Positions 1,282 to 64,000 of a DNA stretch of 64,000 bases are shown here, piece after piece. The position numbers were made by a program, and so were the translations under genes. The notes beneath the pieces are model-generated. The model saw only the letters and a program-made list of their open reading frames with translations, did no database searches and was not told the origin of the DNA. Position 1 is the stretch's first letter. Each line of letters starts with the position of its first letter. Origin of the DNA: an uncultured delta proteobacterium (GTDB lineage Bacteria; Desulfobacterota; Syntrophobacteria; BM002); assembly GCA_963712115.1 (NCBI GenBank), contig CAVQGX010000021.1:61465-125464 (forward strand). The letters run 5' to 3'.

Positions 1282-2536
1282 TTAGTCACTCCCGATGTTA
1301 AGACTTTTGTCCTGAAACTCAACTTCTGGAAAGTCACTTCCTAAAAAGGCAAACCCGAAGGTGCCAATTACACCGAATGAGAAAGCGACTAGGAAGTTTG
1401 TCGTGGGGCTTATTAGCCAGAGAAATGCACCGCCGAAGGCGGCAATGGAAACGAACACATCTCGCATAAGATAGTACAGGCCGAACATACCTGCCTTGCA
1501 GTTTTCTGGGGCTAGATCCATAATCAGCGCCTTACGGGTGGGTTCTCCGAACTCTTTGAAACCTCTCAAGATAAAGGCGAGGACCAGCCAGTTGAAAGAA
1601 TGGCAGAAGAGGAGGGTGAGGGGAAATAAGGTGAAAAAAACAAAGGTCATGACCACGAAAGGCTTTTTTGTCAGTCTTATCAGCAAGATATGCGACAGGC
1701 ACATAGACGAGCACGGCCGTGGCCATCTCAATGCTGGTGAGGATGCCAAACTGTAAAGCGGAAACAGGCGAGGAAATGGTCTTCATACACCAGACGACGA
1801 CAAAGGCATAAGGGATCTGTTCGCAGTAGCGCACGAGAATGTCGGATACCAGAAGCCGTCTAAGGTTCGGAGCCATTAAGCGGTAGAGTTTTAACGGATT
1901 CTTCTCCGGTACATATAGGCACTCTTCTCCAGGCTGTTTCGGCGGCTCATCTTCGATGAGCTTCTGCTGCAGGACAATTGCTACGAATGAAAGCAGCAGA
2001 GCAGCAACAAAGGCCGCCCGAACCCCGTCTCGCTCCCCCCAAATTCCAATGCAAACACCCCCCAGCACAGGGCCCAGGGCCATGGGAATTCTTCGCACCA
2101 AAGAATGCATACTGACTCCCATGGTCCTTTTGCTCATAGGCAGCACTTTGGCGATAAGGCTCATGGTGGCGGGAAGAGAGATTGCTGACCAGGAAATAAA
2201 AAGAACGGCCCCAACAAGAACAGCCTGCCAGGCGGGAAATATGATGACAACAAGGAAGCCGCACATGGCGACAATATTGAATATGAGTAGGGCTCGTTTG
2301 GTGCCTAAGCGGTCGGACAGATACCCTCCAGGAAAGGAGTAAAGGGCCGAGAGCAGGTTATCCATTCCGTTTAGAAAACCAATGGACAGGGCGCCGCCCC
2401 CTAGGGCCAGAAGGTAAATGGGTAGAAATCTCTCGGCCAACCGCTCTCCCATACCTACGAGAATCACCATGAACAGCACGCCCACTGTGCTTCTGGTGAG
2501 ACCCAAAAAATCGGAGACACGGTCTACCCGCGCCAT
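1282..2536 (-). pseudogene. MFS transporter interrupted by a +1 frameshift (possibly a sequence error)
   Basis: ORFs 1532..2536 and 1282..1749 join at ...LADKTD/KKPFVVMTF if one base is removed from the T6 run at 1664-1669; GYLSDRLGTKR MFS motif A; span is 3n+1. Confidence 0.8.
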
Positions 2537-2829
2537 AGTGCTATCCTTTCAAAGAAAACAATGGTTTCAGTCCTAATCCTCTGTAAATCTGTGACTTAGC
2601 ATAATTTCAAATTATTTTTCGGTTTTTGGACGTTCCTTTGCAACTTATCCCACTATATCAATTAAACACTTTGCGGGTAAGCAATGTGAGATTAAACTAT
2701 CTAAATCGTCTCCGTCCGGCAACCGCGTTCTTGGGTGTTATTCCGAGGAGACCCGAAAATGGGGGGACAACGAGGAATCTCATGGATGAGAGGGCAGCAG
2801 CGATTGTTCGACTAGAAGGTGGCGGTTAA

Positions 2830-3483
2830 ATGAAAAGAGAATCAAAAATACAGTTATTTCAGCGGGTTGACGTTTATCCGGTAACCTGCGAGCGGTTTTC
2901 CCTAGGGAGGTCGAATCTGCAGGTTCTGGAGGCGGTGATCCAGGGCGGGTCAAAAATAATTCAGCTAAGAGAGAAAGAGTACCCTAAGAAGGATTTTTAT
3001 CACCTGGCCTTGAAGTTCAAGGAGATTACCACCAGAGCCGGGGTTTTGCTCATCATCAACGATCATGTGGATATTGCTCTCGGTGTGGAGGCAGACGGAG
3101 TTCACCTGGGCCAGGAAGATTTGCCCGTGCAGGTAGCGAGAAAGCTGGCGCCGGAGTTGCTTATCGGAGCCTCAACCCACTCTCTGGAACAAGCTCTCCA
3201 GGCTGAAAAGGATGGGGCAGACTACATCAACATTGGTCCAATATTTTCAACCGAAACTAAGGAAGGGGTGGGACGTTCCTTGGGCCCTGAGGCAATCAGC
3301 GAAATAAGCCCGCAGATTAAGATACCCTTTACGGTGATGGGAGGGATAAACGAGGACAATATAGAACAGGTTCTAGCCAAAGGCGCACGAAGGGTGGCAA
3401 TGGTTACGGCCATAACTAAGGCCGCGGACATTGCGGCTAAGGTTGCATCCTTGAAAGAAAAAATCAGACAATTTTCGGGCTAG
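2830..3483 (+). CDS. thiE: Thiamine-phosphate synthase
   Basis: QLREK, INDHVD, GVHLGQEDL, GASTHS, GPIFSTETK, GGI motifs. Confidence 0.93.
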   Translation: MKRESKIQLFQRVDVYPVTCERFSLGRSNLQVLEAVIQGGSKIIQLREKEYPKKDFYHLALKFKEITTRAGVLLIINDHVDIALGVEADGVHLGQEDLPVQVARKLAPELLIGASTHSLEQALQAEKDGADYINIGPIFSTETKEGVGRSLGPEAISEISPQIKIPFTVMGGINEDNIEQVLAKGARRVAMVTAITKAADIAAKVASLKEKIRQFSG

Positions 3484-3512
3484 GAATGATAGTTTAAGCG
3501 CACCTCAGACTA

Positions 3513-4547
3513 TCAGAGATTAATATCAGGCCAACTTGAGATGGGATCGGTTGAACGGACTACATGCATTCCTGCGGCGGCAAATCTCTGAAAAGCCGCG
3601 GTGGCCTGTTGGGTGTAATCTATGACTCCAGGGATAACAACTGGAGAAGAGCAGTCTTCCAGAAGGTAGACTTTCTCAGCAAGCTTTTTATCTGAAAGCT
3701 GAATTTCGCTCAATAGATCGTCTATTGTCCAGGCAACACAGTGACTCTTGGCCTGCCCGGCAATAACAACTGCATCAAAGTCCAAAAGCTTTTTGATAAA
3801 TCCCACATTTTTTTTAGCAATCTGCTCTCCTGCTGCGTCCTCTAACACCTCTGGTTTGAGAACCGAGTAATTCTCGGTGAAGGGATTACCTCCTTTGACT
3901 TGAAAATCCGGCTGGCTATATCGGGCGATACTGTGGAAAAAAATGACTTCCTCAACCGCTGAAACCAGGGCATGGCCAATGCCGCCGAGCATGGCATGAT
4001 ACGGCCAGATGGTGAGGTCATACTTGCCGCCTTCTTTCAGCTGCCGAGTGTAGTGGCGCAAATATTCCTGGCCGTAAGTTTCGTCGATATTCAGACTGGA
4101 GGAAAGTTCAGGGTTGAATTGCCAAACACCTTGCTCAATATCTTCAAGGCTAATGAGTGTATATGGTTCTGGATGGTCTCCCTTGTCATTTACCAGAAAA
4201 ATGGAGTGAAAAATCTGCATGGCCTGATGGGTGTCCATGGTTGGGCATATCTCAGTAATCACACCCAAGTTGCCATAAATGAATTGGCACAACCTGCGAT
4301 TGTCATCTACAGCTCCTGTTCCTGAAGCACCGCCAACAAAAAGCTCAAAATCTGGAATACAGAAGGTGTTCTGCACATCAACCAAGAGCAGGGAAATGCG
4401 GAATTTGTCGCGAGAAGCGGGCTGGAGCAAGTTTTTTTTTGCCCATTTTTCAGCATCTGCCGCCCGTTCCTGATAAGCTACCTTCCACACTTCGCCAACT
4501 TTTCCTGGATTGAAGTGCGGGGGGATAGGAAGTTTTTGCCTTGCCAC
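3513..4547 (-). CDS. Cysteine hydrolase, nicotinamidase/isochorismatase family
   Basis: [26 protein letters not shown] catalytic motifs. Confidence 0.8.
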
Positions 4548-41272: not shown

Positions 41273-41302
41273 TTGACAAGTGAGAGCGAGAGGGTGTAAA
41301 GA
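41273..41302 (+). promoter_or_regulatory. Sigma-70 promoter for the riboswitch operon
   Basis: TTGACA at 41273-41278; TG-TAAAGA at a plausible -10 distance. Confidence 0.5.
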
Positions 41303-41318
41303 TTAGTCGAAAACTTGA

Positions 41319-41482
41319 GCTCCTTTCGCTACGGAATCCTGTGAAAGTCAGGAGCGGTCCCGCCGCTGTGAACTCGGCCCTACCGGGCAGAAACTCACGG
41401 CCACTAAGGGCCACTGTCCCGCTTAAGCGGGATGGGAAGGCCGGTCGTTGAACCGAGTGAGCCAGAAGACGGGTGAGGGGGG
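41319..41482 (+). ncRNA. Cobalamin (B12) riboswitch
   Basis: GGAA-TCCTG-TGAAAGT-CAGGA-GCGG-TCCCG-CCGC-TGT core; GCCACTG...GGGAAGGC; B12 box GAGCCAGAAGAC. Confidence 0.9.
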
Positions 41483-41513
41483 TTTAGGGTTTAAGGCTTT
41501 GTCGATGGTAAAG

Positions 41514-41548
41514 AAGGCCTTCGTCTGCTGGATGACGAAGGCTTTTTT
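41514..41548 (+). terminator. Attenuator terminator (riboswitch expression platform)
   Basis: AAGGCCTTCGTC-TGCTGGAT-GACGAAGGCTT followed by a T run; 20 bp before the ATG. Confidence 0.85.
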
Positions 41549-41568
41549 CATTTTGCGAGGTGAATTTC

Positions 41569-42633
41569 ATGAAAGCTGCTGTCCTTGAAAAACCAGGCCA
41601 CTTGGTAACAAGAGAGCTCTCTGACCCCAGCTGTCCGCCCGGGGGGGTGGTGGTGAAGGTTTTGGCCTCCCAGGTGTGTTCAACGGACCTGCACATGTGG
41701 CAAAGGGGCCATCCGGCACTGCATTGTCCCAGGATACTGGGCCATGAAATTGGAGGTGTGGTGGCTGAGGTGGCAAAAGAGGTGGAAGGTGTGAAAATAG
41801 GAGACAAAGTTCAAGTCTACCCTGGGATTTCATGTGGAGCCTGTAGATTTTGCCGACAGGGTAGAGAAAACCTTTGTCCCTCAATCAAAATACTGGGTTT
41901 CAGTGTGGACGGCGGTTTTGGCCAATACCTCACGTTGCCTAAAAAAGCTATTAAAAACCGTTGCTTAAATCTTGTACCCCATCCAGTGTCCACGGCCGAG
42001 GCCGCCATGGCCGAGCCCCTGGCCTGCTGCCTGAATGGCCTCGAAAAGGTAGCCTTGAAGGAGGATGAAACCGTTCTCATCCTGGGGGCAGGTCCCCTGG
42101 GATGTCTGTTCGCCATGATGGCAAAGCATCGAGGCTCCGGCAAAGTGATTCTTTTGGAGAAGGACTCCGGTCGTATTAGTCAGGCGCGCCAAGGATTGGA
42201 AGTTGATTTTCTCGATCCCAACAAGGTGGAAGTGGTGGAAGCGGTGATGGAACTTACCGGAGGTGAGGGGGCAGATGTAGTGGTGACCTGCTTCAGGGAA
42301 GCTGCCCTGGAGTACCCGCTTTTGGATTTAGCGGCCCCAGGAGGTCGAGTGCTGATGTTTTCTGGGATTTCCGCAGACAAAGGATTGGTGCCAACTGATT
42401 TAAATGCGGTCCATTACCGGGAACTAGCATTGATAGGTGCTTATGGTTGTACATCCGCTCAGTGTCAGCGGGCCCTTGACCTCATGGCCAACGGTCTGGA
42501 TGTAAATTGGCTCATATCGGAGAGGGTAACTCTCCATGACCTTGAGGAATCTTTTTCTGACCTTGCATCGAAAAATGTGATGAAGATATGTGTGGAACCT
42601 TGGGAGGATAATGATGAATTGGTTTGGCAGTAG
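41569..42633 (+). CDS. Zn-dependent medium-chain dehydrogenase (L-threonine/sorbitol dehydrogenase family)
   Basis: VCSTDLH, GHE, CGACRFC...NLC structural Zn site, AEPLAC, GAGPLG. Confidence 0.9.
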   Translation: MKAAVLEKPGHLVTRELSDPSCPPGGVVVKVLASQVCSTDLHMWQRGHPALHCPRILGHEIGGVVAEVAKEVEGVKIGDKVQVYPGISCGACRFCRQGRENLCPSIKILGFSVDGGFGQYLTLPKKAIKNRCLNLVPHPVSTAEAAMAEPLACCLNGLEKVALKEDETVLILGAGPLGCLFAMMAKHRGSGKVILLEKDSGRISQARQGLEVDFLDPNKVEVVEAVMELTGGEGADVVVTCFREAALEYPLLDLAAPGGRVLMFSGISADKGLVPTDLNAVHYRELALIGAYGCTSAQCQRALDLMANGLDVNWLISERVTLHDLEESFSDLASKNVMKICVEPWEDNDELVWQ

Positions 42634-43714
42634 GATACAGCGGTTAATAAACAAAGAGGACCTGGACAGGGATACCATTAGAAAAATGTTCACCCAGGTT
42701 TTGCGAGGGGAACAGCCAGATCTTCAGCAGGGCGCTTTTCTAGCGGCCCTAGTGGCCAAGGGTGAGACTGCCGCAGAGATAGCAGGGGCTTGGGAGGCAA
42801 TCCGGGAGGTGGATACGGTCAAGGTGGAACCCAAGGTGGACGGGCCAATCTTGGATAACTGCGGCACGGGAATGGATCCATTTAAAACCTTCAACATTTC
42901 TACCGCGGCTTCCGTCATTGCAGCGGCAGAAGGTGTGGTGTTAGCCCGGCACGGGGCAAGATCCATTACCTCCAGGTGCGGCACGGTGGATGTGGCCGAG
43001 GCCTTGGGGGTTGAGGTGGAGGCTGAGATAGAGGTGGCAAAGAAATCGGTGGAGCAATGTGGACTGGGGCTTTTCAATGGCATGAGTCCCTCGGTCCATC
43101 CAAAAGGGTTGTTTCGCATACTTTCAAAGATAAGGTTCGGTACCACCTTGAATATTGCGGGCTCTCTGGCCAGTCCGGTTCTGCCGCAATTAGGGGTGAG
43201 GGGAGTTTTTAGCCCGGGAATGGTAGACAAAGTAGCTGAGGTGATGGGTGAGATAGGCTACAAGGAAGCCTATGTTTTCCATGGTCTCAGGGAGAATGGC
43301 GAGCCGGGAATGGACGAGATTTCCAACCTGGGGCCAACCGTTTTCTGTCGATTGAAACGAAACGGCAATCTGGAAAGGTTCACGCTCGAGCCAGAGGAAT
43401 TGGGGCTAAAAAGAGCCAAGGCCGAAGAACTGGCTCCGGCCGAAAGTCCACAGGAAGAAGCAGTCAGGTTGGTGCGGCTGCTGTCGGGTCGGGACAATGG
43501 GGCCAGGCTCGAGGCAGTCTGTGTCAATACAGCCCCGATGTTCCTCCTAGTTGGGAAAGTGGGGGATTTTAAAGCAGGGGTCGAGCTCGCCCGGGAAATT
43601 GTCTTCACCGGTAAAGGGTTGGCCAAGCTCAGAGAGTGGGTCAAGTGTCAGAATAGTGATCCAGATAAGGGACTTGCGAGACTAAAGAAGGTGCTTGTTG
43701 AAGCTGGGGTATAA
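42611..43714 (+). CDS. Anthranilate phosphoribosyltransferase (TrpD)-fold protein with altered active-site motifs
   Basis: KGETAAEIAG, DNCGTGMD, TFNISTAA, RHGARS, GMDEIS; overlaps the dehydrogenase stop; RBS GGAGG; no trp genes nearby. Confidence 0.85.
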   Translation: MMNWFGSRIQRLINKEDLDRDTIRKMFTQVLRGEQPDLQQGAFLAALVAKGETAAEIAGAWEAIREVDTVKVEPKVDGPILDNCGTGMDPFKTFNISTAASVIAAAEGVVLARHGARSITSRCGTVDVAEALGVEVEAEIEVAKKSVEQCGLGLFNGMSPSVHPKGLFRILSKIRFGTTLNIAGSLASPVLPQLGVRGVFSPGMVDKVAEVMGEIGYKEAYVFHGLRENGEPGMDEISNLGPTVFCRLKRNGNLERFTLEPEELGLKRAKAEELAPAESPQEEAVRLVRLLSGRDNGARLEAVCVNTAPMFLLVGKVGDFKAGVELAREIVFTGKGLAKLREWVKCQNSDPDKGLARLKKVLVEAGV

Positions 43715-43809: not shown

Positions 43810-45759
43810 TCACGTCTTTAATTCAGGCAGATCCACATAGCAGTCCAGGGCATCAGGATTTGCCAGGGCATCCTTGTTTTTTACTTCCCGCCCATGGACA
43901 ACATTTTGAACTGCCAATTCCACTTTCTTGCCACTGATGGTGTACGGAATATCGGCGACCTCGATGCATTTGGCAGGGACGTGCCTTGGTGTACAATTTT
44001 TGCGAATGGTTGTTTTGATTTTGTCAACTAGCTCATCAGTAAGCTTAATGTGTTCACGGAGTTTGACGAAAAGAACAATTCTCACATCATCTTCCCAGTC
44101 CTGTCCAACTACCAGACTGTCCACGATCTCGGGAATGCTTTCCACCTGGCGGTATATTTCGGCGGTGCCAATGCGCACACCGCCCGGATTGAGGGTGGCA
44201 TCCGACCTGCCGTAGATGATAACGCCGCCATGCTCGGTTATCTCTATATAATCCCCATGCAGCCAGACTCCGGGATACACATCAAAGTAAGCCTCACCAT
44301 ACTTAATATTGTTGGGATCGTTCCAGAAGTAAATGGGCATACTTGGCGCCGACATGGTGCAGACAAGCTCTCCTTTGTGTCCAATAACAGGATTACCCTG
44401 TTCATCGTAGGCCTCCACCTTCATGCCCAGGCCACGGCACTGGAGTTCAGAAGCATAAACGGGCCCCATGGGATTTCCCAGGGCAAAGCAAGAGATGATA
44501 TCCGTGCCCCCTGAGATGGAAGAGAGGCAGAGGTCATCCTTGATGTCCCTGTAGACGAATTCGAAGCTCTCGGCAGAAAGGGGAGAACCTGTGGAGAGAA
44601 TGGCCTTGAGCGAGGTCAGGTCGTAGGATACCTTTGGTTTCACTCCCGCTTTTTCCAGAGCGGCTAAATACTTGGCGCTAGTGCCGAAAATGGTGATTTT
44701 CTCGTCTTGGGTCATCTGCCACATTGCACCTGGATCTGGATAAAAGGGAGAACCGTCGTAGAGAAAAACCCTGGTGCCAAGGGCCAAGGAACTCACCAGC
44801 CAATTCCACATCATCCAGCCGCAAGTGGTGAAGTAGAAAATGGTATCTTCCCTCTCAACATCTGAGTGGAGCTTTAGTTCCTTGATGTGCTGCAAGAGAG
44901 TCCCTACCGCCCCATGAACAATACACTTTGGCACTCCAGTGGTACCGGAAGAATACAAGATGTAAAGGGGATGATTGGCGGGAACTTGTTCAAATGTTAG
45001 GTCCTTGGCCTCCTGGGCGAGAAAGTCCTCAAAGAGAACGGTGTTGGCCATGGCGGCAATATCAGGTTTCGTGTCTTTGTATGGAACAACGACAATTTTT
45101 TCTATGCTTGGCAGTTTCTTGATAATTTCCGAAATTCTATCCAAAGAATCGAACTCTTTACCGTTGTAGAAGTAGCCATCGGCGGTAAAAAGGATGCGAG
45201 GTTCAATTTGGCCAAAGCGATCAAGAACTCCTTTGATGCCAAAATCAGGAGAACAAGAGGACCAGATGGCCCCGATGCTGGTGGCGGCAAGCATGGCCAC
45301 CACCGTTTCGATCATATTGGGCATAAAGGCGGCAATACGATCTCCCGGTTCGATTCCCATGTGTCGCAGAGACTTAGCAAGGCGAGCAACCTGTTGATAT
45401 AGTTCATTGTATGTAATGCTCATGGTAGGGCGGGTCTCGCCCTTGAAGCTAAGGGCGATGCGGTCATCCCGGTACCGGAGCAGGTTTTCAGCGAAGTTGA
45501 GCCGAGCCCCTGCGAACCATCTAGCTCCCGGCATTTTGTTTATCTCATCTACCACCAGATCATAGGATCGACTGTGGATAACCTCAGCGTAATCCCAAAG
45601 GGTCGCCCAAAAAACAGGACTCTCCTCAATAGACCACTTGTAAAGATCCTCGTAATTGGCGAAAATTTTTCCATGGCGTGAGTTAACGTAATTCATGAAA
45701 TGATAAATATTAGTATTTCTGATACGCTCTGCCGATGGTTGCCAGAGAAGTTTGTTCAT
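43810..45759 (-). CDS. Acetoacetate-CoA ligase
   Basis: [61 protein letters not shown]. Confidence 0.93.
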
Positions 45760-46045
45760 GATCTCTGCTTCCTATTCATCTCTCTTTTGATGGTGTGCGT
45801 TTTCGTTTTACAGGTGAAGCATAATTTAAGGCCCGTCCTTGCTTGAGGGTAAGAGATTCAGCCCCGCTTTACAAGATACTAATTTATTGTATTGGCAATA
45901 TTCGTCAATAAAAGACTGTGCCAAACCGGGCTAGAATTTCCAGCTTGAAACTGGCGCAACAAAGGGCGACAAGAATGGTTGAGTGGCCAAATAGGTAGTT
46001 CTTTCGAAGAGGGCCTTGGAGTTAGCATAAGAGGGAGATTTGCCC

Positions 46046-46735
46046 ATGAAGGTTATCGGACTAATAGGCGGCATGAGTTGGGAATCCACCGCAGAGTACT
46101 ACAGGATAATAAATGAAACGGTCAAAGAGCGGTTGGGGGGACACCACTCAGCGAAGATTCTGCTCTACAGTGTTAATTTCGGCGAGCTAGTAAAATTGCA
46201 GCGAGAGGGACGATGGCAGGAAGCAACTGAGTTTATGTGCGAGGCGGCCAGGCGAGTCGAGCTAGGTGGTGCCGACTGTATTCTCATCTGCACAAACACC
46301 ATGCACAAAATGGCTACAGAGGTCCAGAGGGCTGTAATTATTCCTCTTCTACACATTGCTGACGCCACTGCCATGGAGATCAAAAAGAAGGGAATTGGAC
46401 GAGTTGCACTGCTAGGAACCAAGTACACCATGGAAGAGGAGTTCTATAAAGGGCGGTTGAGGACGAAGTACGGTTTCGAGGTACTCATTCCCCCCGAAGA
46501 GGATCGGAACATAATAAATCAAATCATATATGATGAACTTTGTCTGGGAAAAGTAGAAGACGAATCAAAGAAGCGATTTGTCCAAATCATTGGTGGATTG
46601 AAGAATCAGGGGGCCGAAGGAGTTATCCTGGGATGCACGGAAATATCGCTCTTGATCAAGCAGGAAGATTCGCCGCTGGAGCTTTTTGATACCACGGCAA
46701 TCCACGCCCGAGCTGCGGTGGATTTTGCCTTGTAA
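46046..46735 (+). CDS. Aspartate/glutamate racemase family protein
   Basis: IGLIGGMSWEST, CTNTMH, ILGCTEI. Confidence 0.93.
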   Translation: MKVIGLIGGMSWESTAEYYRIINETVKERLGGHHSAKILLYSVNFGELVKLQREGRWQEATEFMCEAARRVELGGADCILICTNTMHKMATEVQRAVIIPLLHIADATAMEIKKKGIGRVALLGTKYTMEEEFYKGRLRTKYGFEVLIPPEEDRNIINQIIYDELCLGKVEDESKKRFVQIIGGLKNQGAEGVILGCTEISLLIKQEDSPLELFDTTAIHARAAVDFAL

Positions 46736-46751
46736 AGTAAGGAATATAAAA

Positions 46752-47627
46752 ATGAAAGTTGCTCTCATTGGAACTGGTCGCATGGGTCGTCCTATGGCGG
46801 AAAGAGCCATGGCTTTGGGTCATCAATTGGTGGTCTTTAACCGCAGCCGTAATAAGGCGGAGCCACTTCGGTCCTCGGGGGCCTTGATTGCCGTATCGGC
46901 GGCGGAAGCCATTGACTCAGCCGAGTGCCTGATCCTGATGCTCGCCGATGGGGCAGCAATACGGGAAGTACTCTTCAACAGCGAGCCGACAGCCGATTTG
47001 CACGACCGGACTGTGATCCAAATGGGTACCATCTCGCCGGCGGATAGCGTTGCTTTCGAGAAGAAAGTGCTGGGCCTGGGCGGCGAATATCTTGAAGCGC
47101 CGGTCCTGGGAAGCATCCCCGAGGCAACAGCGGGCAAGCTTCTAATCATGGTGGGGGCTTCTAAGCAACAGTTTGACAAATGGTCAACCTTGCTTGAGTG
47201 TTTTGGCTCGGAACCCGTGTTGATCGGTGAGGTGGGCAAGGCTGCCGCGGTGAAACTTGCTCTTAATCAGCTAATCGCTTCTTTGACAGTGGGCTTTGCC
47301 TCCAGTCTAGGGTTAGTGAAGAGCCTAGGGGTTGAGGCGGAATTATTCATGAAGATCTTGCGCCGAAGCGCTCTGTATGCTCCGATTTTCGACAAAAAAC
47401 TTAAGCTTATGCTGGATCGCGACTACGGTATTGGCAATTTCCCCACCAAGCATCTGTTCAAAGATGTGGCATTGTTCCATAGTGCAGCACAAAGTGTAAA
47501 CTTAGAAACCCTAGGTATAGAAGCTATTCGCCGTCTCCTAGAGATTACCCTTGAAAAAGGATATGCTGAAGGCGATTATTCGGCTTTGTTTGAAGCAGTG
47601 AGCCCCCTTGACACTAGGCAAAGGTAA
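46752..47627 (+). CDS. 3-hydroxyisobutyrate/beta-hydroxyacid dehydrogenase family protein
   Basis: IGTGRMGRPMA, FNRS, GTISP, EAPVLGS, VKLALN, KD. Confidence 0.9.
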   Translation: MKVALIGTGRMGRPMAERAMALGHQLVVFNRSRNKAEPLRSSGALIAVSAAEAIDSAECLILMLADGAAIREVLFNSEPTADLHDRTVIQMGTISPADSVAFEKKVLGLGGEYLEAPVLGSIPEATAGKLLIMVGASKQQFDKWSTLLECFGSEPVLIGEVGKAAAVKLALNQLIASLTVGFASSLGLVKSLGVEAELFMKILRRSALYAPIFDKKLKLMLDRDYGIGNFPTKHLFKDVALFHSAAQSVNLETLGIEAIRRLLEITLEKGYAEGDYSALFEAVSPLDTRQR

Positions 47628-57430: not shown

Positions 57431-59842
57431 TTAAAATCGGTAGGTAACCCTCAGGTAGACAATATTGACCTCGTAGTCTTCCGGAAGGGTGCCCATGAGA
57501 TAAGCACCATTAGAATCGCCACCTGAGTCAGTGGGGACATTGGTAAAATCATCCTTGTTGTAGTCGTCATAGTCGAACTTTTCATACATATAGCCTAGGG
57601 TAAACACCAGAGGTTTCCAGGCAGTGTAATTTAATTTCGTCTCCAGGATATGGATTGTTGTCTCATCCACGGTGTTGAAATCATCAGTATCCGCAGCGGG
57701 GGTGTAAAAATCGATCTTGCCGTCAACCTCTGAAAAGGAATAGGAGATGTCAAGGTCGAGCTTCTCGGGAATGAGGACAGCCTGCACCCCCGCGCCCACG
57801 GTGTTGACAATATCTTCGCTTCTGGAAAACCAGTCACCGTCCACTACCGGCGAGCTTGGTACTTCGCCAAAATCCTTCTGCCGGTTCTTGTAGTATTCAT
57901 AGCTGTAAAAACCATGGAGATTCAATCTGTCCGAGACATTGTAATCTGCCTCCAAGGTGAGGATGTAGTGTTTGTCTTCGAGGAGCCCGTAGGGCGAGTC
58001 ATCGAAGTCATCCTCTCCGTAGGTAAAAGAGGTGCTCAAGGCGACGGGTTCCCAGGGGTAGACCGTGGCCTGGAACCGAAACCTGTCCCTGGTCATGTCT
58101 GCCTGGTCATATTTCCTCAGCCCAGGCAACTGCTCGAGATCTTGGCCACTTTCGAGATATAGGTCAAAATCATAATCACCAATGTCTCTTTCGGTCCTCT
58201 GGTAGGAAGCCCTGAGGTCCAGCCAGGAGAAAGGGCTGCTGTCAAGTGAACCAGCGAATATTTGATCGTCCTGTTTGTCTACCTCCCTGTTTGTTCTCTC
58301 GGTCTGCTCAAAGGTGTACCCCAGGGTGAGCCTGGTTTTTTTGAACAGATCGAAGCCCAAGTCTCCCCCTGCAGTGGTTTTCTTGTAACTCGTGGGGAGG
58401 TTTACAATACTGCTGGCACCAGGGGCGTCTGGAGTAACGAAAAAATCATCAGCGGGCACAAAACCGGGAAAATTTATCTGGTCTGTGTTGTTGTCGTATT
58501 CAAAGTAGCGGAACTTACCCTTTAGATGGACAAATTTTACTGGACTCGAGGTGAGCAGGACGTGGTAAAGGGAGGTGTTCACCTCGGCATCGGCGCTTTT
58601 TTCGGGAAGACTGTTGGGGTCCGAAGCATCTCCGCCGGTAGGTGTGGTGAGGGCGGTATTGGTGGTGTAGGGTACCAGATCATCATCCTGGATCATCCAG
58701 CCCCACGAGGCAGTGGCAGAGACCCGGGTCTTTAGGGGAATATTCATGTATGAACCAGAAACCGACAGGTTGTGATAGTGGTTGTCCGGAGCGAGGTCTA
58801 TCAAGCCCTGGGCTGCTGCTCCCACGGTGTCGGTTGCCCTGAAAGGGTTATCCCATGTCAGGGTATCGGTATTGTTTTCGAAGAGGGAAAAATAATAGCT
58901 AAGATTAAAAAAGAATGGTTTTTTGGCGTACTCACCAATGAATTTCACCTCAGTTGTGTCGTAATCTATGGGCTCGGGTATCTCCACGGCATCATCGAGG
59001 CCGAATGAACCAAAAAACGGCCTGGTGCCATCTTTGTGTTCCCTGCCAAACTCAACCCGGAAGTTAAGTGGATCATAGGCCGCAACCTCAGCACTCACCT
59101 CTACTTTTTTTCTCTCGAGCTCGATATCCACGGACTTTGCATTGGCTGAGAGTGCGTTTAACCGATTCGCCCGGTCCGGGAAAAGGACATCTTGTTTGGT
59201 TCCCCTCAAGGTCAGGTCGCCACTGCCGGTTCCGGAATAAATCGTCTCGGCATCATCTGCGAACCGGTGGGTAAGCTCATCATAGCTGGCTTCTATTTTG
59301 AACTTTCCGTACCTGCCACCAGCAGCCGTGTAGTGCTGGTCGTCCCTGCCTATATTATTGCCGGTGACCTCCAAGAAGTACTCATCTTTCTTGTCGTATT
59401 TGACCTTGAGATCTCCGTAGACAGGTGTATCCAGATCCCTGTATTCTTGAGCCTTTGCCGAGTCATCCTCGCCGTCAGTGATTCTACCGGCAACTCCTAC
59501 TTCACCCGAAAAAGTACCAGGAACTCTCTGCCTGGCAACCCCGGTAACACCCACAGCATCGAGAGCGGCCGAAACATCCCTGCCGGTACCCAAGATAAAG
59601 CCACCTCCCAGTTCTTTAGGTAACTCTATGAGAACGATGTGGTTTAAAGCTCCCGCAGGAGGGTATTTAATCACAAAGATACCCGGCTGTTTTTTAAGCA
59701 TCTCCATCTGTTCGGAGCTGATTTCCACCTTTTTACCCGAGGGCAACCTCACTGGAGCTGCCAGTGCAGGCCCGGTCAGAAACAGGACGAGCAAGAAGCT
59801 CACGAACTTCAAGAGCACCGCTTGATTTCGACCCCCAAACAT
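57431..59842 (-). CDS. mtrB: MtrB/PioB-family decaheme-associated outer-membrane beta-barrel
   Basis: SAKAQEYRD, EPIDYDT, SLFEN, WDNPF, APDNHYH, LRKYDQAD; C-terminal YRF; follows the decaheme gene. Confidence 0.88.
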   Translation of the reverse strand: MFGGRNQAVLLKFVSFLLVLFLTGPALAAPVRLPSGKKVEISSEQMEMLKKQPGIFVIKYPPAGALNHIVLIELPKELGGGFILGTGRDVSAALDAVGVTGVARQRVPGTFSGEVGVAGRITDGEDDSAKAQEYRDLDTPVYGDLKVKYDKKDEYFLEVTGNNIGRDDQHYTAAGGRYGKFKIEASYDELTHRFADDAETIYSGTGSGDLTLRGTKQDVLFPDRANRLNALSANAKSVDIELERKKVEVSAEVAAYDPLNFRVEFGREHKDGTRPFFGSFGLDDAVEIPEPIDYDTTEVKFIGEYAKKPFFFNLSYYFSLFENNTDTLTWDNPFRATDTVGAAAQGLIDLAPDNHYHNLSVSGSYMNIPLKTRVSATASWGWMIQDDDLVPYTTNTALTTPTGGDASDPNSLPEKSADAEVNTSLYHVLLTSSPVKFVHLKGKFRYFEYDNNTDQINFPGFVPADDFFVTPDAPGASSIVNLPTSYKKTTAGGDLGFDLFKKTRLTLGYTFEQTERTNREVDKQDDQIFAGSLDSSPFSWLDLRASYQRTERDIGDYDFDLYLESGQDLEQLPGLRKYDQADMTRDRFRFQATVYPWEPVALSTSFTYGEDDFDDSPYGLLEDKHYILTLEADYNVSDRLNLHGFYSYEYYKNRQKDFGEVPSSPVVDGDWFSRSEDIVNTVGAGVQAVLIPEKLDLDISYSFSEVDGKIDFYTPAADTDDFNTVDETTIHILETKLNYTAWKPLVFTLGYMYEKFDYDDYNKDDFTNVPTDSGGDSNGAYLMGTLPEDYEVNIVYLRVTYRF

Positions 59843-59863
59843 ACCTGAACTCCTCGACGCAGT

Positions 59864-59891
59864 AAGTTATCCGTTATTGGTTATTCGTTAT
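59864..59891. repeat. Heptamer tandem array (NNGTTAT)
   Basis: AAGTTAT CCGTTAT TGGTTAT TCGTTAT. Confidence 0.7.
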
Positions 59892-60137
59892 ACGGGTTGA
59901 ATCGTTTCTGCGACTTCCCAGCAAGTTATGAACTTTGTTTTCCATTCCTGTAGGAGCAAGCTCTGCTTGCGACGAACTATTTTCTTTTGGCACGGGTTCC
60001 GCTGCGCGGAACGCACAGATTACACGGCAAAATGCCTTAATAGATGGGTCTTTCAAGCGATCCCCAAAACCACTCATAAAAGCTTATTCAAAACCGTGAC
60101 ATCCGTGTGTCGCCACAGGCGACCCGTGCCTAAAGAT

Positions 60138-61055
60138 TTATCTCAACAAACTCTTCCCCGAAGGATGGTTGCTGCCATGTATCTGCACGTGGCAGTTGAG
60201 ACAGGCGCGGTAAAACCCCCTGTTGTTTAGTACACGATATACCGATTGACCTGCCTCGCTTGCGCTCCTCGCTTGAAGCTGGCTCGGGTGCCCCACATTG
60301 GAATGGCAACTCTGGCAGAGGTAGGGCATCTTTGCTTTTAGAAGAGGCGTGCGGGGAGAGCCGTGAGGTACATGACAGGTGAGGCAGTCCTCCACAACGG
60401 AAGGGTGCTCCCACAGGTAGGGCCCGCGCACATTGGCATGGCACTCAAAGCACTTAAAGTTGACGTATTGTGCGCTTACCAGTCTATCCGCCATCGTCCC
60501 GTGGGAATTGTGGCAATCCGAACAGTTCATTTTCCCTTCCCGTATGGGATGATGGGACTGCCTCAAGAGCTCGGCTTTTATCTGCTTATGACACTGGGTG
60601 CACACCTCGGTCTCAGTGGGCTTTGAGAACCCTTTCGGGTATTCCTGGTGAGGGTTGTGACAGTTCGAGCAGGCGAGCCCTCTCTGTTCATGGGTGCTAC
60701 CGTGCCATAAAGCCACCTTGCCCTTATTGTGACAGCCGAGGCATGGCCTATTCTTTTCCCCCACCGGGGTGGCTGATTTTGGATTCAAGACGAGGATAGT
60801 GCCCTCTTCGCCTTCGGATTCCACATGGGCAGCCCCCGGGCCATGACAGGACTCGCAACCATGTTTTGCCCCCGGGGTCCTCGGGTCCCCCTTGATGGCA
60901 TGGTAGTTTTTCATGTAGCTTTGATACCACTCCTCATGACACTCCATGCAGGTTTCGGAGCCCACATAGATCTCATCCCCCATGGCTTTTTGTGAGGCGA
61001 TAATCACTACAGCAGCAAGAATGATTGTTGAAAAGATGGGCAACTTCTTGGTCAT
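60138..61055 (-). CDS. mtrA: MtrA/DmsE-family decaheme c-type cytochrome
   Basis: Ten CxxCH motifs counted; GCESCHGPG..H, GPYLWEH, HGSNHPSG; signal peptide; ATG overlaps the upstream TGA (ATGA). Confidence 0.93.
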   Translation of the reverse strand: MTKKLPIFSTIILAAVVIIASQKAMGDEIYVGSETCMECHEEWYQSYMKNYHAIKGDPRTPGAKHGCESCHGPGAAHVESEGEEGTILVLNPKSATPVGEKNRPCLGCHNKGKVALWHGSTHEQRGLACSNCHNPHQEYPKGFSKPTETEVCTQCHKQIKAELLRQSHHPIREGKMNCSDCHNSHGTMADRLVSAQYVNFKCFECHANVRGPYLWEHPSVVEDCLTCHVPHGSPRTPLLKAKMPYLCQSCHSNVGHPSQLQARSASEAGQSVYRVLNNRGFYRACLNCHVQIHGSNHPSGKSLLR

Positions 61056-64000
61056 CCGCACAGCCTCCTGAACTTAGCCCTCCTTCGTCTAATCGATCCG
61101 AGGGAAATCACCAAAGTTAGACCAATCGTCACAAGCAATGAGAGGGTGAACTTAAGAGTCGCTGGGGGGCCGGAGCTCGGGTCAACCCGGCTCAAACCAC
61201 CAGGGGAAAAAGCCTCCACCATGTTCCTGTCCTTTACAGCCGACGCCATAACTGAGCTGTAAGCTGAGGCGGCGATAAAACAGCCACCGCCACCCCAATC
61301 GCTTGAAGTTGTGGTGATGGAGCTAGAACCGCTGGAGGAAGCAGTCCCGAGGCCGGAAGGATCTACTATGACGCCGTTGACCACACGATCATCGTCGCCT
61401 GTGCCTCCATCTTCCAGGATAAGGGTGACCTGATCCCTGGCAGCATTGAAGGCAGCGTTGCCATTGTAGTCGGTCCAACCGGCAGCATCATTGTACTTGT
61501 ACCATCCATATCCATCCGGTGCCGGGGATGGCAGGAAAATTGTAACTGTGGTTGTGGCGCCAGGAGCGGAAACCCTGATTTCCATCTCCACCAGACCGTA
61601 AAGCAAGTTGTCCGGCTTACCAAAGGTGGCGGGCACGGTAGCTGGATCGACAAAACTGAGGCGGGTGAAGGAGCCGCCATTGTCTTCTCTGATGCCGAAG
61701 GGCTCGTCGGCAAGCGTTCTGGTGGTAAGCACGTCGGCAGGAAATCCGGTTATGCCGTTGTCGCTTACAGTAACCGAAACTTGATCACTGGCCTGAAGCC
61801 CTCCGGTGTCTGCCGCCGTGAGCCTGAAGGTCAAGGTTGTCCCGCTAAGATCTACTATGGGGGTAACAAAGGTCGGCTGAACTGCACTGGCATTAGACAG
61901 GGTTACCGGGGGGCCGGCGGTCTGGGTCCAGAGGTAAGAGGCGATACCGTCGTCGGGGTCGGTGGAATTGGAGCCATCCAGAGTAACCGTCGCACCCTCC
62001 TCTACCGATTGATCAGGGCCAGCATCAGCCCAGGGTGCAGCGTTTACCCAGCTTACATTGACGATGGAAGTAGCGGTAGACTTCAAGCCCCCACCGTCGG
62101 TAACCGTCAACTGGAAGGTCAGCGACACCCCGCTCATGCCAACATCGGGAGCAGTGAAAGTAGGTGTAGCCACCGAGGGGTTAGAAAGGGTAACCTGGCT
62201 TCCACCCAACTGCTTCCACTGATAAGAACTGATGCCGTCATCCGGGTCGGTTGAATTTGAACCGTCCAGGGTGACAGTCACGCCTTCAGCAACTGTTTGG
62301 TCGGGACCGGCGTTGGCCGTGGGTGGCAGGTTGATCCACGAGACATTCACTATACAGGTGTCGGTGGATTGCAGCCCACCGCTGTCGGTAACTGTCACTT
62401 GGAAAGTGAGGGGTTCACCACTTGGTCCCACATCCGGGGCGGTGAAGGTTGGCCTGAACACGCTGGTGCTCGAGAGGGTGACCGGACTTCCACCAGTCTG
62501 CGCCCACGAATAGGAAGCGATACCATCATCCGGGTCGGTGGAATTGGAGCCATCCAGAATGACCGTAGCACCTTCATCTGCTGTTTGATCAGGACCGGCG
62601 TTGGCCGTGGGTGGCAGGTTGACCCAGGAGACGGTGACAATACAGGTGTCGGTGGATTGCAGTCCACCGCTGTCGGTAACTGTCACTTGGAAAGTCAGGG
62701 ATCTACCACTTGGTCCCACATCCGGCGCGGTGAAGGTGGGCTGAACCGCGGTGGTGCTAGATAGAGTAACGACCGTACCACCTATCTGTTCCCATAGATA
62801 AGAGGCTATGCCATCGTCCGGGTCGGTGGAATTGGAACCGTCGAGAGTGACAGCGTCTCCCTCATTTACCGTTTGGTCAGGACCGGCGTCCGCCGTGGGC
62901 GGCAGGTTACCATTTGTTATGTTCACAATGCAGGTGTCGGTGGCTTCTAAACCAAAGCCGTCCGTAACCCTCAGCCTGAAGGTCAAGGACGCCCCACCAG
63001 ATCCCACCACCGGAGCTGTGAATGTGGTTTGAGCAGCCGATGGAGCAGACAGGGTGACAGCGGGACCAGCCGTTTGGGTCCAGAGATAGGAGGCTATGGA
63101 GTCATCCGGATCGCTAGAATTGGAGCCGTCCAGGGTGACAGTGTCTCCCTCATTCACTATTTGGTCAGGACCGGCGTCCGCCGTGGGCGGAAGGTTTACC
63201 GAGGAAATGTTAACTGTGCAGACATCGGTGGATTGCAGGCCACCGCTGTCGGTAACTGTCAACTGGAAAGTGAGGGATGCCCCACTTGGCCCCACATTCG
63301 GGGCGGTTAAAGTAGGCTGAACCGCAGTAGTGCTGGACAGGGTTACAGGGGTACCGGCTGTCTGTTTCCACAGGTAAGAAGCTATGCCATCGTCCGGATC
63401 GCTAGAATTGGAGCCGTCCAGGGTGACCGTATCTCCCTCATTTACTGTTTGGTCAGGCCCAGCATCCGCCGTGGGTGGTAGGTTGACCCAGGAGACGTTG
63501 ACAATACAGGTGTCGGTGGACTGCAGGCCGCCGCTGTCGGTAACTGTCAACTGGAAAGTGAGGGATGCCCCACTTGGCCCCACATTGGGGGCGGTGAAGG
63601 TGGGCCTGGCCGCCGAGGTGTTGGACAAAGTCACCGAGAGGCCGCCGGTCTGGTTCCACTGGTAGGAGGAAATGTCATTGTCCGGATCGCTCGAATTGGA
63701 GCCATCCAGGGTGACAGTCACACCTTCATCCACTGTTTGATCTGGACCACCATCCGCCGTGGGCGGTAGGTTGACCCAGGAGACGTTGACAATACAGGTG
63801 TCGGTGGACTGCAGGCCGCCGCTGTCGGTAACTGTCAACTGGAAAGTGAGGGATGCCCCACTTGGCCCCACATTGGGGGTGGTGAAAGTGGGCCTGGCCG
63901 CCGAGGTGTTGGACAAAGTTACCGTGAGGCCGCCAGTCTGGTTCCACTGGTAGGAGGAAATGTCATTGTCCGGATCGCTCGAATTGGAGCCGTCCAGGGT
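61052..64000 (-). CDS. Large surface protein with at least 8 tandem 96-aa PKD/Ig-like repeats, a choice-of-anchor-like domain and a GGGGCFIA C-terminal sorting motif; 5' end outside the window
   Basis: Frame open to position 64000; repeat NLPPTADAGPDQTV.EG..VTLDGSNS.DPD; DGGTGDDD...GVIVDPSG; GGGGCFIAASAY, then a TM helix and basic tail. Confidence 0.88.
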   Translation of the reverse strand, partial: TLDGSNSSDPDNDISSYQWNQTGGLTVTLSNTSAARPTFTTPNVGPSGASLTFQLTVTDSGGLQSTDTCIVNVSWVNLPPTADGGPDQTVDEGVTVTLDGSNSSDPDNDISSYQWNQTGGLSVTLSNTSAARPTFTAPNVGPSGASLTFQLTVTDSGGLQSTDTCIVNVSWVNLPPTADAGPDQTVNEGDTVTLDGSNSSDPDDGIASYLWKQTAGTPVTLSSTTAVQPTLTAPNVGPSGASLTFQLTVTDSGGLQSTDVCTVNISSVNLPPTADAGPDQIVNEGDTVTLDGSNSSDPDDSIASYLWTQTAGPAVTLSAPSAAQTTFTAPVVGSGGASLTFRLRVTDGFGLEATDTCIVNITNGNLPPTADAGPDQTVNEGDAVTLDGSNSTDPDDGIASYLWEQIGGTVVTLSSTTAVQPTFTAPDVGPSGRSLTFQVTVTDSGGLQSTDTCIVTVSWVNLPPTANAGPDQTADEGATVILDGSNSTDPDDGIASYSWAQTGGSPVTLSSTSVFRPTFTAPDVGPSGEPLTFQVTVTDSGGLQSTDTCIVNVSWINLPPTANAGPDQTVAEGVTVTLDGSNSTDPDDGISSYQWKQLGGSQVTLSNPSVATPTFTAPDVGMSGVSLTFQLTVTDGGGLKSTATSIVNVSWVNAAPWADAGPDQSVEEGATVTLDGSNSTDPDDGIASYLWTQTAGPPVTLSNASAVQPTFVTPIVDLSGTTLTFRLTAADTGGLQASDQVSVTVSDNGITGFPADVLTTRTLADEPFGIREDNGGSFTRLSFVDPATVPATFGKPDNLLYGLVEMEIRVSAPGATTTVTIFLPSPAPDGYGWYKYNDAAGWTDYNGNAAFNAARDQVTLILEDGGTGDDDRVVNGVIVDPSGLGTASSSGSSSITTTSSDWGGGGCFIAASAYSSVMASAVKDRNMVEAFSPGGLSRVDPSSGPPATLKFTLSLLVTIGLTLVISLGSIRRRRAKFRRLCG

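Follow-up and report, generated by a model that had tools for sequence, protein, structure and literature searches.

Which pathway is served by two enzymes, a dehydrogenase and a relative of the tryptophan enzyme TrpD, whose genes lie behind a cobalamin riboswitch? The question is raised by a locus on contig C21 of a draft genome (4.9 Mb, 70 contigs, estimated 94.4% complete), within a 64-kb stretch (C21:61465-125464) that we refer to as the window. The closest kin of the locus are metagenome-assembled genomes (MAGs) of the Syntrophobacterales/Desulfobacterota. Here, an RF00174 aptamer precedes overlapping genes for a Zn-dependent medium-chain dehydrogenase (ADH, P0001) and a TrpD-family phosphoribosyltransferase (PRTase; TrpD-like, P0002). 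The pair appears to represent a step of B12-type cofactor assembly that has yet to be described, and we consider it fairly probable that it assists CobT as an accessory module in the metabolism of the cobamide nucleotide loop or lower ligand. The original prediction, a candidate new cobamide lower-ligand or linker module, was supported in part, namely by the riboswitch, by linkage to cob genes, and by a canonical TrpD encoded elsewhere in the genome. As for the choice that it left between ligand and linker, gene context points to the lower ligand, and hence to CobT, more than to the linker.

The proposal that a B12 riboswitch leads the operon was borne out by cmscan, which matched RF00174 at 41309-41492 on the plus strand with 63.8 bits against a gathering score of 31.5 (E 1.9e-13). 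The match runs over the whole model (positions 1-189 of 189), and GCCACTG, its conserved core, can be read in the aptamer sequence. It is the sole Rfam match within the window and one of three RF00174 matches in the whole genome. The 3′ end of the aptamer lies 77 nt before the ATG at 41569, on the coding strand, and the interval holds the predicted expression platform, an intrinsic terminator at 41516-41554 (plus strand) made of a GC-rich hairpin and a U-run that ends 15 nt before the ADH start. Folding of 41470-41575 returned a 14-bp stem whose GC-rich core spans 41516-41542; TTTTTTCATTTT comes next and runs up to 41554. The z-score of this fold was -2.24, with 3 of 200 shuffles equally stable, in agreement with the terminator originally called; our pattern scanner listed the hairpin core (41517-41542) on the minus strand only. 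The ADH gene (41569-42633, plus strand, 354 aa) begins at an ATG preceded by GAGGTG, and its open reading frame (ORF) opens at either 41560 or 41569 and ends at 42633. The TrpD-like ORF opens with GTG at 42590. Its likely start is the ATG at 42611, which has a Shine-Dalgarno sequence (GGGAGG) ahead of it and agrees with the N-termini of homologues, giving a protein of 367 aa encoded at 42611-43714 on the plus strand. An overlap of 23 nt between the two genes hints at translational coupling and, together with the Pfam matches given below, upholds the earlier description of two overlapping genes for a Zn dehydrogenase and a TrpD-fold PRTase.

The first enzyme, P0001, matched the Pfam families ADH_N (2e-26) and ADH_zinc_N (3e-15). 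When 14 orthologues from six phyla were aligned, C37, H59, E60, C89/92/95/103, and G173xGxxG178 were invariant or nearly so. From the two domains, the catalytic Cys/His/Glu, the structural Cys4, and the GxGxxG motif, we assign P0001 to the Zn-dependent medium-chain dehydrogenase/reductase (Zn-MDR) superfamily. A near-invariant Glu ends the second β-strand in these orthologues, and Glu at this position suggests a preference for NAD. P0001 fell under every NCBIfam equivalog cut-off. The top model was L-threonine 3-dehydrogenase (TDH) at 173 bits versus 380, the TDH models TIGR00692 and NF003808 gave 170-173 bits versus cut-offs of 458 and 380, and scyllo-inosose 3-dehydrogenase matched the TDH score with 170 bits. 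Among the positions conserved throughout the subfamily are CxTDxKM, PR(I/V)LGHE, the four structural Cys, and E197, and the first two motifs carry subfamily-specific basic residues, K42 and R55, close to the catalytic site. These features place P0001 in what its sequence marks as a distinct subfamily of Zn-dependent medium-chain dehydrogenases. A search of the PDB found no solved structure from the subfamily of either enzyme; the best ADH match there was an uncharacterized Zn dehydrogenase, and the nearest characterized relatives include TDHs. The ESM Atlas gave only generic names for the proteins. Prediction of a complex between ADH and the TrpD-like enzyme scored 0.00 in both runs, without controls, and counts neither way.

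The second enzyme, P0002, matched Glycos_transf_3 (PF00591, 1.9e-52) and Glycos_trans_3N (PF02885, 2e-17). It scored 255.5 bits against TIGR01245, above the cut-off of 199.05, and hence relatives of P0002 bear the name anthranilate phosphoribosyltransferase in databases. The original prediction had named, as part of what would undo it, the case that this PRTase is the only TrpD of its genome. It is not: a canonical TrpD, which scores 430-432 bits against the same model, is encoded in a trpE-trpG-trpD-trpC operon on contig C7, and P0002 shares only 35% identity with it. Although the motifs GTGMD, NIST, RHGAR, and DE can be read in P0002, they are not those of a canonical TrpD throughout. NxST and DE are retained, whereas GTGGD has become GTGMD in 10 of 11 aligned family members and KHGNR has become (K/R)HGAR in the subfamily, whereby Asn109 is lost. 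Numbered by the sequence of the Sulfolobus solfataricus TrpD structure, Asn109 aligns with Ala123 of P0002, and Arg164 aligns, depending on the alignment, with Lys180 (Gln in the family consensus) or Leu178. We take Asn109 and Arg164 of the S. solfataricus enzyme to be the binders of anthranilate's carboxylate. Further marks of the subfamily are an inserted FNG and, at the C-terminus, a conserved extension (W..QN..PE.GL), and invariant basic residues have been gained in both the ADH and the TrpD-like subfamilies. In a maximum-likelihood tree, 82 subfamily rows split from four canonical TrpDs with an SH-aLRT support of 100 and a branch of 1.88; this was a quick tree, and its long branch calls for caution. 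Scores against the subfamily profile were bimodal across 81 Dehalococcoidales genomes, at 513-652 bits in nine of them versus 210-265 bits for canonical copies. The best PDB matches of P0002 were ordinary TrpDs, with up to 180 bits. Because of the separate clade, the bimodal scores, the lost residues, and the canonical trp operon elsewhere, we do not file P0002 as TrpD but regard it as a divergent TrpD-family PRTase, and a plain role in tryptophan synthesis is excluded as far as sequence can exclude it. Most likely, P0002 still uses phosphoribosyl pyrophosphate (PRPP), on an acceptor other than anthranilate.

The pair is conserved. We scanned one genome per species with subfamily-specific peptide patterns, confirmed 400 relatives, and examined the best 80 loci. 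By tblastn, ADH adjoins the TrpD-like gene in 75 of these 80, and the remaining five are cut by contig ends. Eleven further Desulfobacterota loci gave nine with adjacent ADH, one cut by a contig end, and one (L131) without it. Bacterial holders comprise the Syntrophobacterales and other Desulfobacterota, Dehalococcoidales (Dehalococcoides being among the holders in the Dehalococcoidia), Desulfitobacteriaceae and Peptococcaceae (the holders in the Bacillota including Desulfosporosinus and Ca. Formimonas), Aquificota, Calditrichales, and Actinomycetota. Archaeal holders are the Methanotrichaceae (Methanothrix), Methanomassiliicoccales, ANME-1/Methanophagales, and Syntrophoarchaeum. The module is rare and patchy: it was present in 9 of 81 sampled Dehalococcoidales genomes and was not found in the one sampled genome of the window organism's genus. 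In the tree, TrpD-like sequences of ANME-1 and Syntrophoarchaeum nest among those of Chloroflexota and Aquificota, a placement compatible with transfer of the module between domains. A contig titled uncultured Actinomycetota (L078) is probably misbinned, since both its gene context and the position of its TrpD-like sequence in the tree are those of the Methanotrichaceae.

The riboswitch travels with the pair. An Rfam scan of 35 bacterial loci placed RF00174 directly upstream of ADH in 24, each time on the ADH strand. Six of the other 11 have no upstream DNA on the contig, and the rest are L016 and L032, which begin with cobD-cbiB, L037 and L079 from Aquificota, and L078 with its Methanothrix-like context. 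As expected, the eight archaeal loci scanned gave no Rfam match. For loci added later, the riboswitch was found upstream in 9 of 13 (2 of 2 in Dehalococcoides, 7 of 11 in the further Desulfobacterota). Two complete genomes of Dehalococcoides type, so assigned from 97.9% and 99.5% identity to proteins named D. mccartyi, carry the riboswitch, ADH, and the TrpD-like gene as a stand-alone operon. In Ca. Formimonas warabiya (L052:4220-6105), a group II intron (RF02005, RF00029) sits just 5′ of the riboswitch-led pair.

ORF clustering tied the pair to CobT: of the 80 loci, 36 have a member of the CobT family in the flank, which is of archaeal type in 25 and of bacterial type in 11. The archaeal representative scored 309 bits against TIGR00303 (cut-off 240) and the bacterial representative 461 bits against TIGR03160 (cut-off 319); the representative of the CbiB cluster was confirmed too. 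The juxtaposition recurs in different gene orders, as cobT-ADH-TrpDl (TrpDl being the TrpD-like gene) in Methanotrichaceae, as ADH-TrpDl-cobT in Dehalococcoidales and Desulfobacteraceae, and as cobT-TrpDl-ADH, with cobT of bacterial type, in ANME-1 and Syntrophoarchaeum. For instance, in the Dehalococcoidales locus L035, where btuFCD-x-cbiB-cobD lie upstream, the riboswitch stands between cobD and ADH and heads ADH-TrpDl-cobT-cobS-cobC-(Dph6-like)-cobU. Similar operons read riboswitch-ADH-TrpDl-cobT-cobS-cobD-cbiB in L140 and riboswitch-ADH-TrpDl-cobT-cobS in L136, while L141 reads riboswitch-ADH-TrpDl-cbiZ-(TonB-dependent receptor fragment)-btuFCD. These arrangements, with the riboswitch counts above, supplied the links that the original prediction had asked for, between homologues of the pair on one side and B12 riboswitches and cobT, cobS, cbiB, cobD, or btu genes on the other. 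The most telling evidence for the link to CobT comes from two ADH::CobT fusion proteins (705 and 716 aa), whose genes immediately follow the TrpD-like gene in two genomes (L133, L134) from separate families of the Desulfobacterota. Both contain ADH_N, ADH_zinc_N, and a full CobT (DBI_PRT) domain; their ADH half keeps the subfamily signature with 33% identity to P0001, and the two fusions are 47% identical to each other. A 732-aa ADH::TrpD-like fusion was also observed as a single metagenome protein, which is weak evidence alone because it comes from one contig only.

CobT itself remains in most of these organisms. TIGR03160 CobT was present in 8 of 9 pair-holding Dehalococcoidales, and PF02277, which detects the archaeal type poorly, matched in 36 of 50 pair-holding genomes. 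The seven bacterial pair-holders without a PF02277 match are all MAGs, and all complete genomes examined have CobT. A role of the pair as a general replacement for CobT was rejected on these grounds.

In the host genome, cobT, the cob clusters, and the trp operon lie on contigs other than that of the window, and the organism is, from its gene content, a de novo producer of corrin. The genome's second RF00174 riboswitch heads cbiK-btuCDF-cbiL-x-cobQ, and a riboswitch-less cluster holds cobA, cobU, cobT, cobS, cobD, and cbiB, with no pduX-like gene within it. At 94.4% completeness, the genome gave no match to the ThiC/Bza family (PF01964) and none above cut-off for BluB, and it thus appears to have no known benzimidazole route. 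NadC was above cut-off in all five pair-holding genomes tested, the host included. ThiC-family counts in six pair-holders were 0, 0, 1, 1, 2, and 3, and we dropped the idea that the pair is anticorrelated with bza genes, which are in any case uncommon, since no clear trend emerged from these six. Of the three cobalamin riboswitches in the host genome, the highest-scoring (107 bits) lies outside the window, at G000:C31:344899-345087 (L086, about 1900-4109). It precedes ORFs of 127 and 118 aa, which have no NCBIfam match, and then a 266-aa sulfite reductase/ferredoxin-like protein, and these genes look like another unexplained B12-regulated unit.

Taken together, the corrinoid-sensing leader, the conserved pair, the repeated juxtaposition with cobT, and the ADH::CobT fusions place the pair at the CobT step of nucleotide-loop metabolism, where CobT converts a lower base into its α-ribotide. 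A working mechanism can be outlined from the two families. When corrinoid is plentiful, the aptamer would bind it and the downstream hairpin would terminate transcription, making this a cobamide-repressed operon; when corrinoid is scarce, both enzymes would be made from one translationally coupled message. The TrpD-like enzyme, with PRPP and Mg, would then transfer a phosphoribosyl group to a nitrogen nucleophile lacking anthranilate's carboxylate, and candidates for this acceptor are a lower-ligand base and an amine, aromatic or heterocyclic, that is a precursor of such a base. The NAD-dependent Zn dehydrogenase would oxidize or reduce the phosphorylated, probably labile intermediate, and the product, either a free base released by oxidation or a ribotide, would be handed to CobT and then CobS. 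The extra invariant basic residues of both enzymes fit an anionic substrate.

We give only a small chance to a more specific version of this scheme, in which the pair and CobT would make or complete a benzimidazole-type lower ligand by a route that needs neither radical SAM chemistry nor oxygen. Here the TrpD-like enzyme would use PRPP to N-ribosylate an aromatic ortho-diamine without a carboxylate, or a comparable amine. ADH would oxidize the ring-closed adduct, with ribose C1′ ending up as C2 of the base and a four-carbon sugar phosphate being lost, a reaction that would parallel BluB chemistry under anaerobic conditions. Cobamides with a benzimidazole ligand, 5-methylbenzimidazolyl-cobamide among them, have been reported for Methanothrix and some sulfate reducers, and this version, if true, would explain such cobamides in organisms without bza or bluB genes.

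Several observations weigh against placing the pair at the CobT step, or limit what that placement can say. The substrates and the succession of the steps are guesses drawn from family chemistry, as is the very direction in which the PRTase works, and the fusions do not fix the order either, since non-consecutive enzymes of one pathway can also be fused. The neighbor clusters were typed by checking one representative each against curated models. CobT occurs without the pair in 38 of the 72 pairless genomes among the 81 Dehalococcoidales sampled, so the pair is not a general requirement, and only 12 of 401 sampled Desulfobacterota genomes hold it, the window's genome counted. The single exception to the pairing, L131 (Desulfobacterota G333), has a TrpD-like gene with no ADH within 8 kb. 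Desulfosporosinus lacus has BzaB and the pair together, the sole BzaB among four other holders typed. Lastly, Dehalococcoides, which needs added benzimidazole for growth, carries the pair; this disfavors simple de novo benzimidazole synthesis from central metabolites, whereas a precursor-dependent or salvage version of the pathway may still hold.

How else could the pair be read? One account keeps it in cobamide assembly but moves it to the linker. ADH would be an L-threonine or (R)-1-amino-2-propanol dehydrogenase that delivers aminopropanol via aminoacetone to CbiB, in place of the L-threonine kinase that most producers lack, with the TrpD-like enzyme as an auxiliary. This would suit the top curated ADH match and the TDHs among its nearest characterized structures, the lack of a pduX-like gene in the host's cobA-U-T-S-D-cbiB cluster, and the presence of cbiB and cobD next to the pair in some loci, and Shelton et al. 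(PMC6461909) state that pduX is absent from most verified producers. We nevertheless hold it to be quite unlikely. The TDH score is well under both cut-offs and is equalled by that of scyllo-inosose dehydrogenase, the PRPP-type transferase is left without a role, the riboswitch splits cbiB-cobD from ADH-TrpDl-cobT in L028, L035, and L056, and the fusion partner is CobT rather than CbiB or CobD. To our knowledge, moreover, archaea with only CobY cannot use free aminopropanol. A salvage or remodeling function, by which the pair would trap or release lower bases or dismantle the nucleotide of an imported cobamide in favor of a preferred base, strikes us as rather unlikely, even though corrinoid salvagers hold the pair. 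The Dehalococcoides pair makes up a riboswitch-led operon by itself, the L141 pair has cbiZ, the receptor fragment, and btuFCD behind it, and the Aquificota pair lies inside a btuF-...-btuFCD-cbiB-cobT cluster; PRPP-dependent phosphoribosylation is also the classic trap for a free base. Yet de novo producers (the window's genome, Methanothrix) hold the pair as well, a β-ribotide is no direct precursor of the α-linked loop, and no hydrolase or phosphodiesterase is conserved with the pair.

Stereochemistry lends some appeal to a third account, in which the TrpD-like enzyme and ADH would build an alternative phosphoribosyl donor, a β-N-ribotide made from PRPP that CobT uses in place of nicotinate mononucleotide (NaMN). 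TrpD-type enzymes convert α-PRPP to β-N-ribotides and CobT converts a β-N-ribotide to an α-ribotide, so the two families fit end to end, and the fusions place ADH between the TrpD-like enzyme and CobT. However, NaMN should be available in pair-holders, as NadC was above cut-off in every one of the five tested; the flux demanded by cobamides is tiny; and no leaving group comparable to pyridinium is evident. We regard this account as very unlikely. The same NadC result led us to set aside the TrpD-like enzyme as a dedicated nicotinate PRTase for NaMN supply, a weak rival only, given that NaMN is not missing. Most improbable of all is a role in ordinary metabolism, whether as a second TrpD for tryptophan beside an unrelated dehydrogenase or as a B12-independent bypass of a B12-dependent reaction. 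P0002 does pass the TIGR01245 cut-off (255.5 vs 199) and its relatives carry the anthranilate name, B12 riboswitches are known to control B12-independent isozymes also, and the L136 module lies just downstream of a trp operon. Set against this are the canonical trpE-G-D-C operon on C7 with its TrpD of 432 bits, the long, fully supported branch and the two separate score ranges, the replaced carboxylate-binding residues, and a pair that is embedded in cobT-cobS operons and fused to CobT.

A function of the pair at the CobT step would matter beyond this genome. The lower ligand decides who can share a microbe's cobamide, and the genes behind ligand choice are still missing for many anaerobes, among them methanogens, methane and alkane oxidizers, organohalide respirers, and syntrophs. 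The pair offers a concrete two-enzyme candidate for the missing step, being corrinoid-regulated, traveling with cobT across two domains, and fused to CobT in some genomes. Since Dehalococcoides and Methanothrix carry it, bioremediation consortia and methanogenic digesters, respectively, may be affected. The module is now annotated as "anthranilate phosphoribosyltransferase" and "alcohol dehydrogenase", and the result would correct a widespread misannotation. Our full-text search, whose coverage left out most subscription journals, found no paper that describes the pair, and older Dehalococcoides or Desulfitobacterium papers may have listed its genes as B12-responsive. A figure legend in a metagenome paper (PMC8620254) includes trpD and "DH" when listing what a variable region with cobalamin genes contains, without interpretation, and the passages covered of PMC4285132 do not mention the pair.

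The original prediction also placed a promoter ahead of the riboswitch. A possible -35 box, TTGACA, is present at 41273-41278 on the plus strand as a weak feature read from the sequence, while the -10 region is poor (TAAAGA or AAAGAT, around 41297-41303) and a consensus promoter scan called no plus-strand promoter here, with 2 minus-strand matches versus 1.4 expected. A promoter at TTGACA is for these reasons plausible yet unsupported. The earlier statement that the window has no trp, cob, or btu genes holds for the 29 ORFs annotated by Pfam, the window having 56 ORFs that reach 150 aa or more. Convergent to the pair lies an acetoacetate-CoA ligase gene (43810-45759, minus strand), and 3′ of it, at 46040-47627 on the plus strand, are genes for an Asp/Glu racemase and a 3-hydroxyisobutyrate-dehydrogenase-like protein. 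We rejected all three as parts of the module, as they are conserved in close Syntrophobacterales relatives only, a sign of lineage synteny. At 57431-63916 (minus strand), a gene for an MtrB/PioB-type outer-membrane porin (803 aa) adjoins one for a multihaem cytochrome (307 aa, paired CXXCH), and the same stretch also encodes a 954-aa protein with many PKD domains. The three resemble an extracellular electron-transfer conduit.

Neighbors at other loci deserve mention as well. A Dph6-like ATP pyrophosphatase of the diphthine-ammonia ligase family is encoded between cobC and cobU within a nucleotide-loop operon of Dehalococcoidales (L035:11691-12377; cluster c34, three loci). In Aquificota (L037:2671-3390 and L079), the gene for a small radical SAM protein (239 aa) comes directly after the TrpD-like and ADH genes inside the btu-cbiB-cobT cluster. 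The riboswitch-led operon of L136 (6220-12743; Desulfobacterota G358) begins immediately 3′ of an apparently complete trp operon with a canonical trpD, an adjacency that may be a trace of the duplication behind the subfamily or may be chance. In L131 (8380-10099), the TrpD-like gene adjoins genes for a shikimate-kinase-family P-loop kinase and an enoyl-CoA hydratase. A MiaB-like neighbor seen in 22 loci was discarded as coincidence or lineage synteny, being of the archaeal MtaB type in Methanotrichaceae and a bacterial MiaB, followed by MiaA, in L014.

The pair can be compared with several known systems. The TrpD-like enzyme has the TrpD fold (nucleoside phosphorylase/PRT class II, PF02885 and PF00591) and the PRPP/Mg motifs NxST, DE, and GTGxD, the last as GTGMD rather than GTGGD in most members, but its gene lies outside a trp operon, behind a B12 riboswitch, with a dehydrogenase gene as its partner. 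CobT and ArsAB belong to the same pathway neighborhood, and phosphoribosyl transfer to a base is common to both chemistries; unlike the TrpD-like enzyme, to which it has no homology, CobT uses NaMN rather than PRPP and makes the α-anomer. The pair accompanies CobT rather than replacing it and is not a substitute, given the CobT found in 8 of 9 pair-holding Dehalococcoidales. With the PduX/CobD route and MDR-type TDH, the likeness is that ADH falls in the same Zn-MDR branch as TDH and that the threonine kinase step is without a known gene in most producers, whereas ADH scores far under the TDH cut-offs, has its own K42 and R55, and has CobT rather than a linker enzyme as its fusion partner. CblT/CblS and CbiZ/CbiR are likewise corrinoid-regulated accessory functions around the nucleotide loop that occur patchily in salvagers, but they belong to other protein families, and the conserved pair comes without a transporter, kinase, or hydrolase. 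A further parallel is the bza operon of anaerobic benzimidazole biosynthesis (bzaAB or bzaF, cobT, bzaC-E), reportedly described by Hazra et al. in 2015. There, too, a cobalamin riboswitch leads lower-ligand enzymes interleaved with cobT, and the distribution is patchy among strict anaerobes, consistent with horizontal transfer. The enzymes are unrelated, the pair consisting of a PRPP-type transferase and a Zn dehydrogenase with no ThiC-like radical SAM protein, and the pair is best seen as an accessory comparable to the bza genes.

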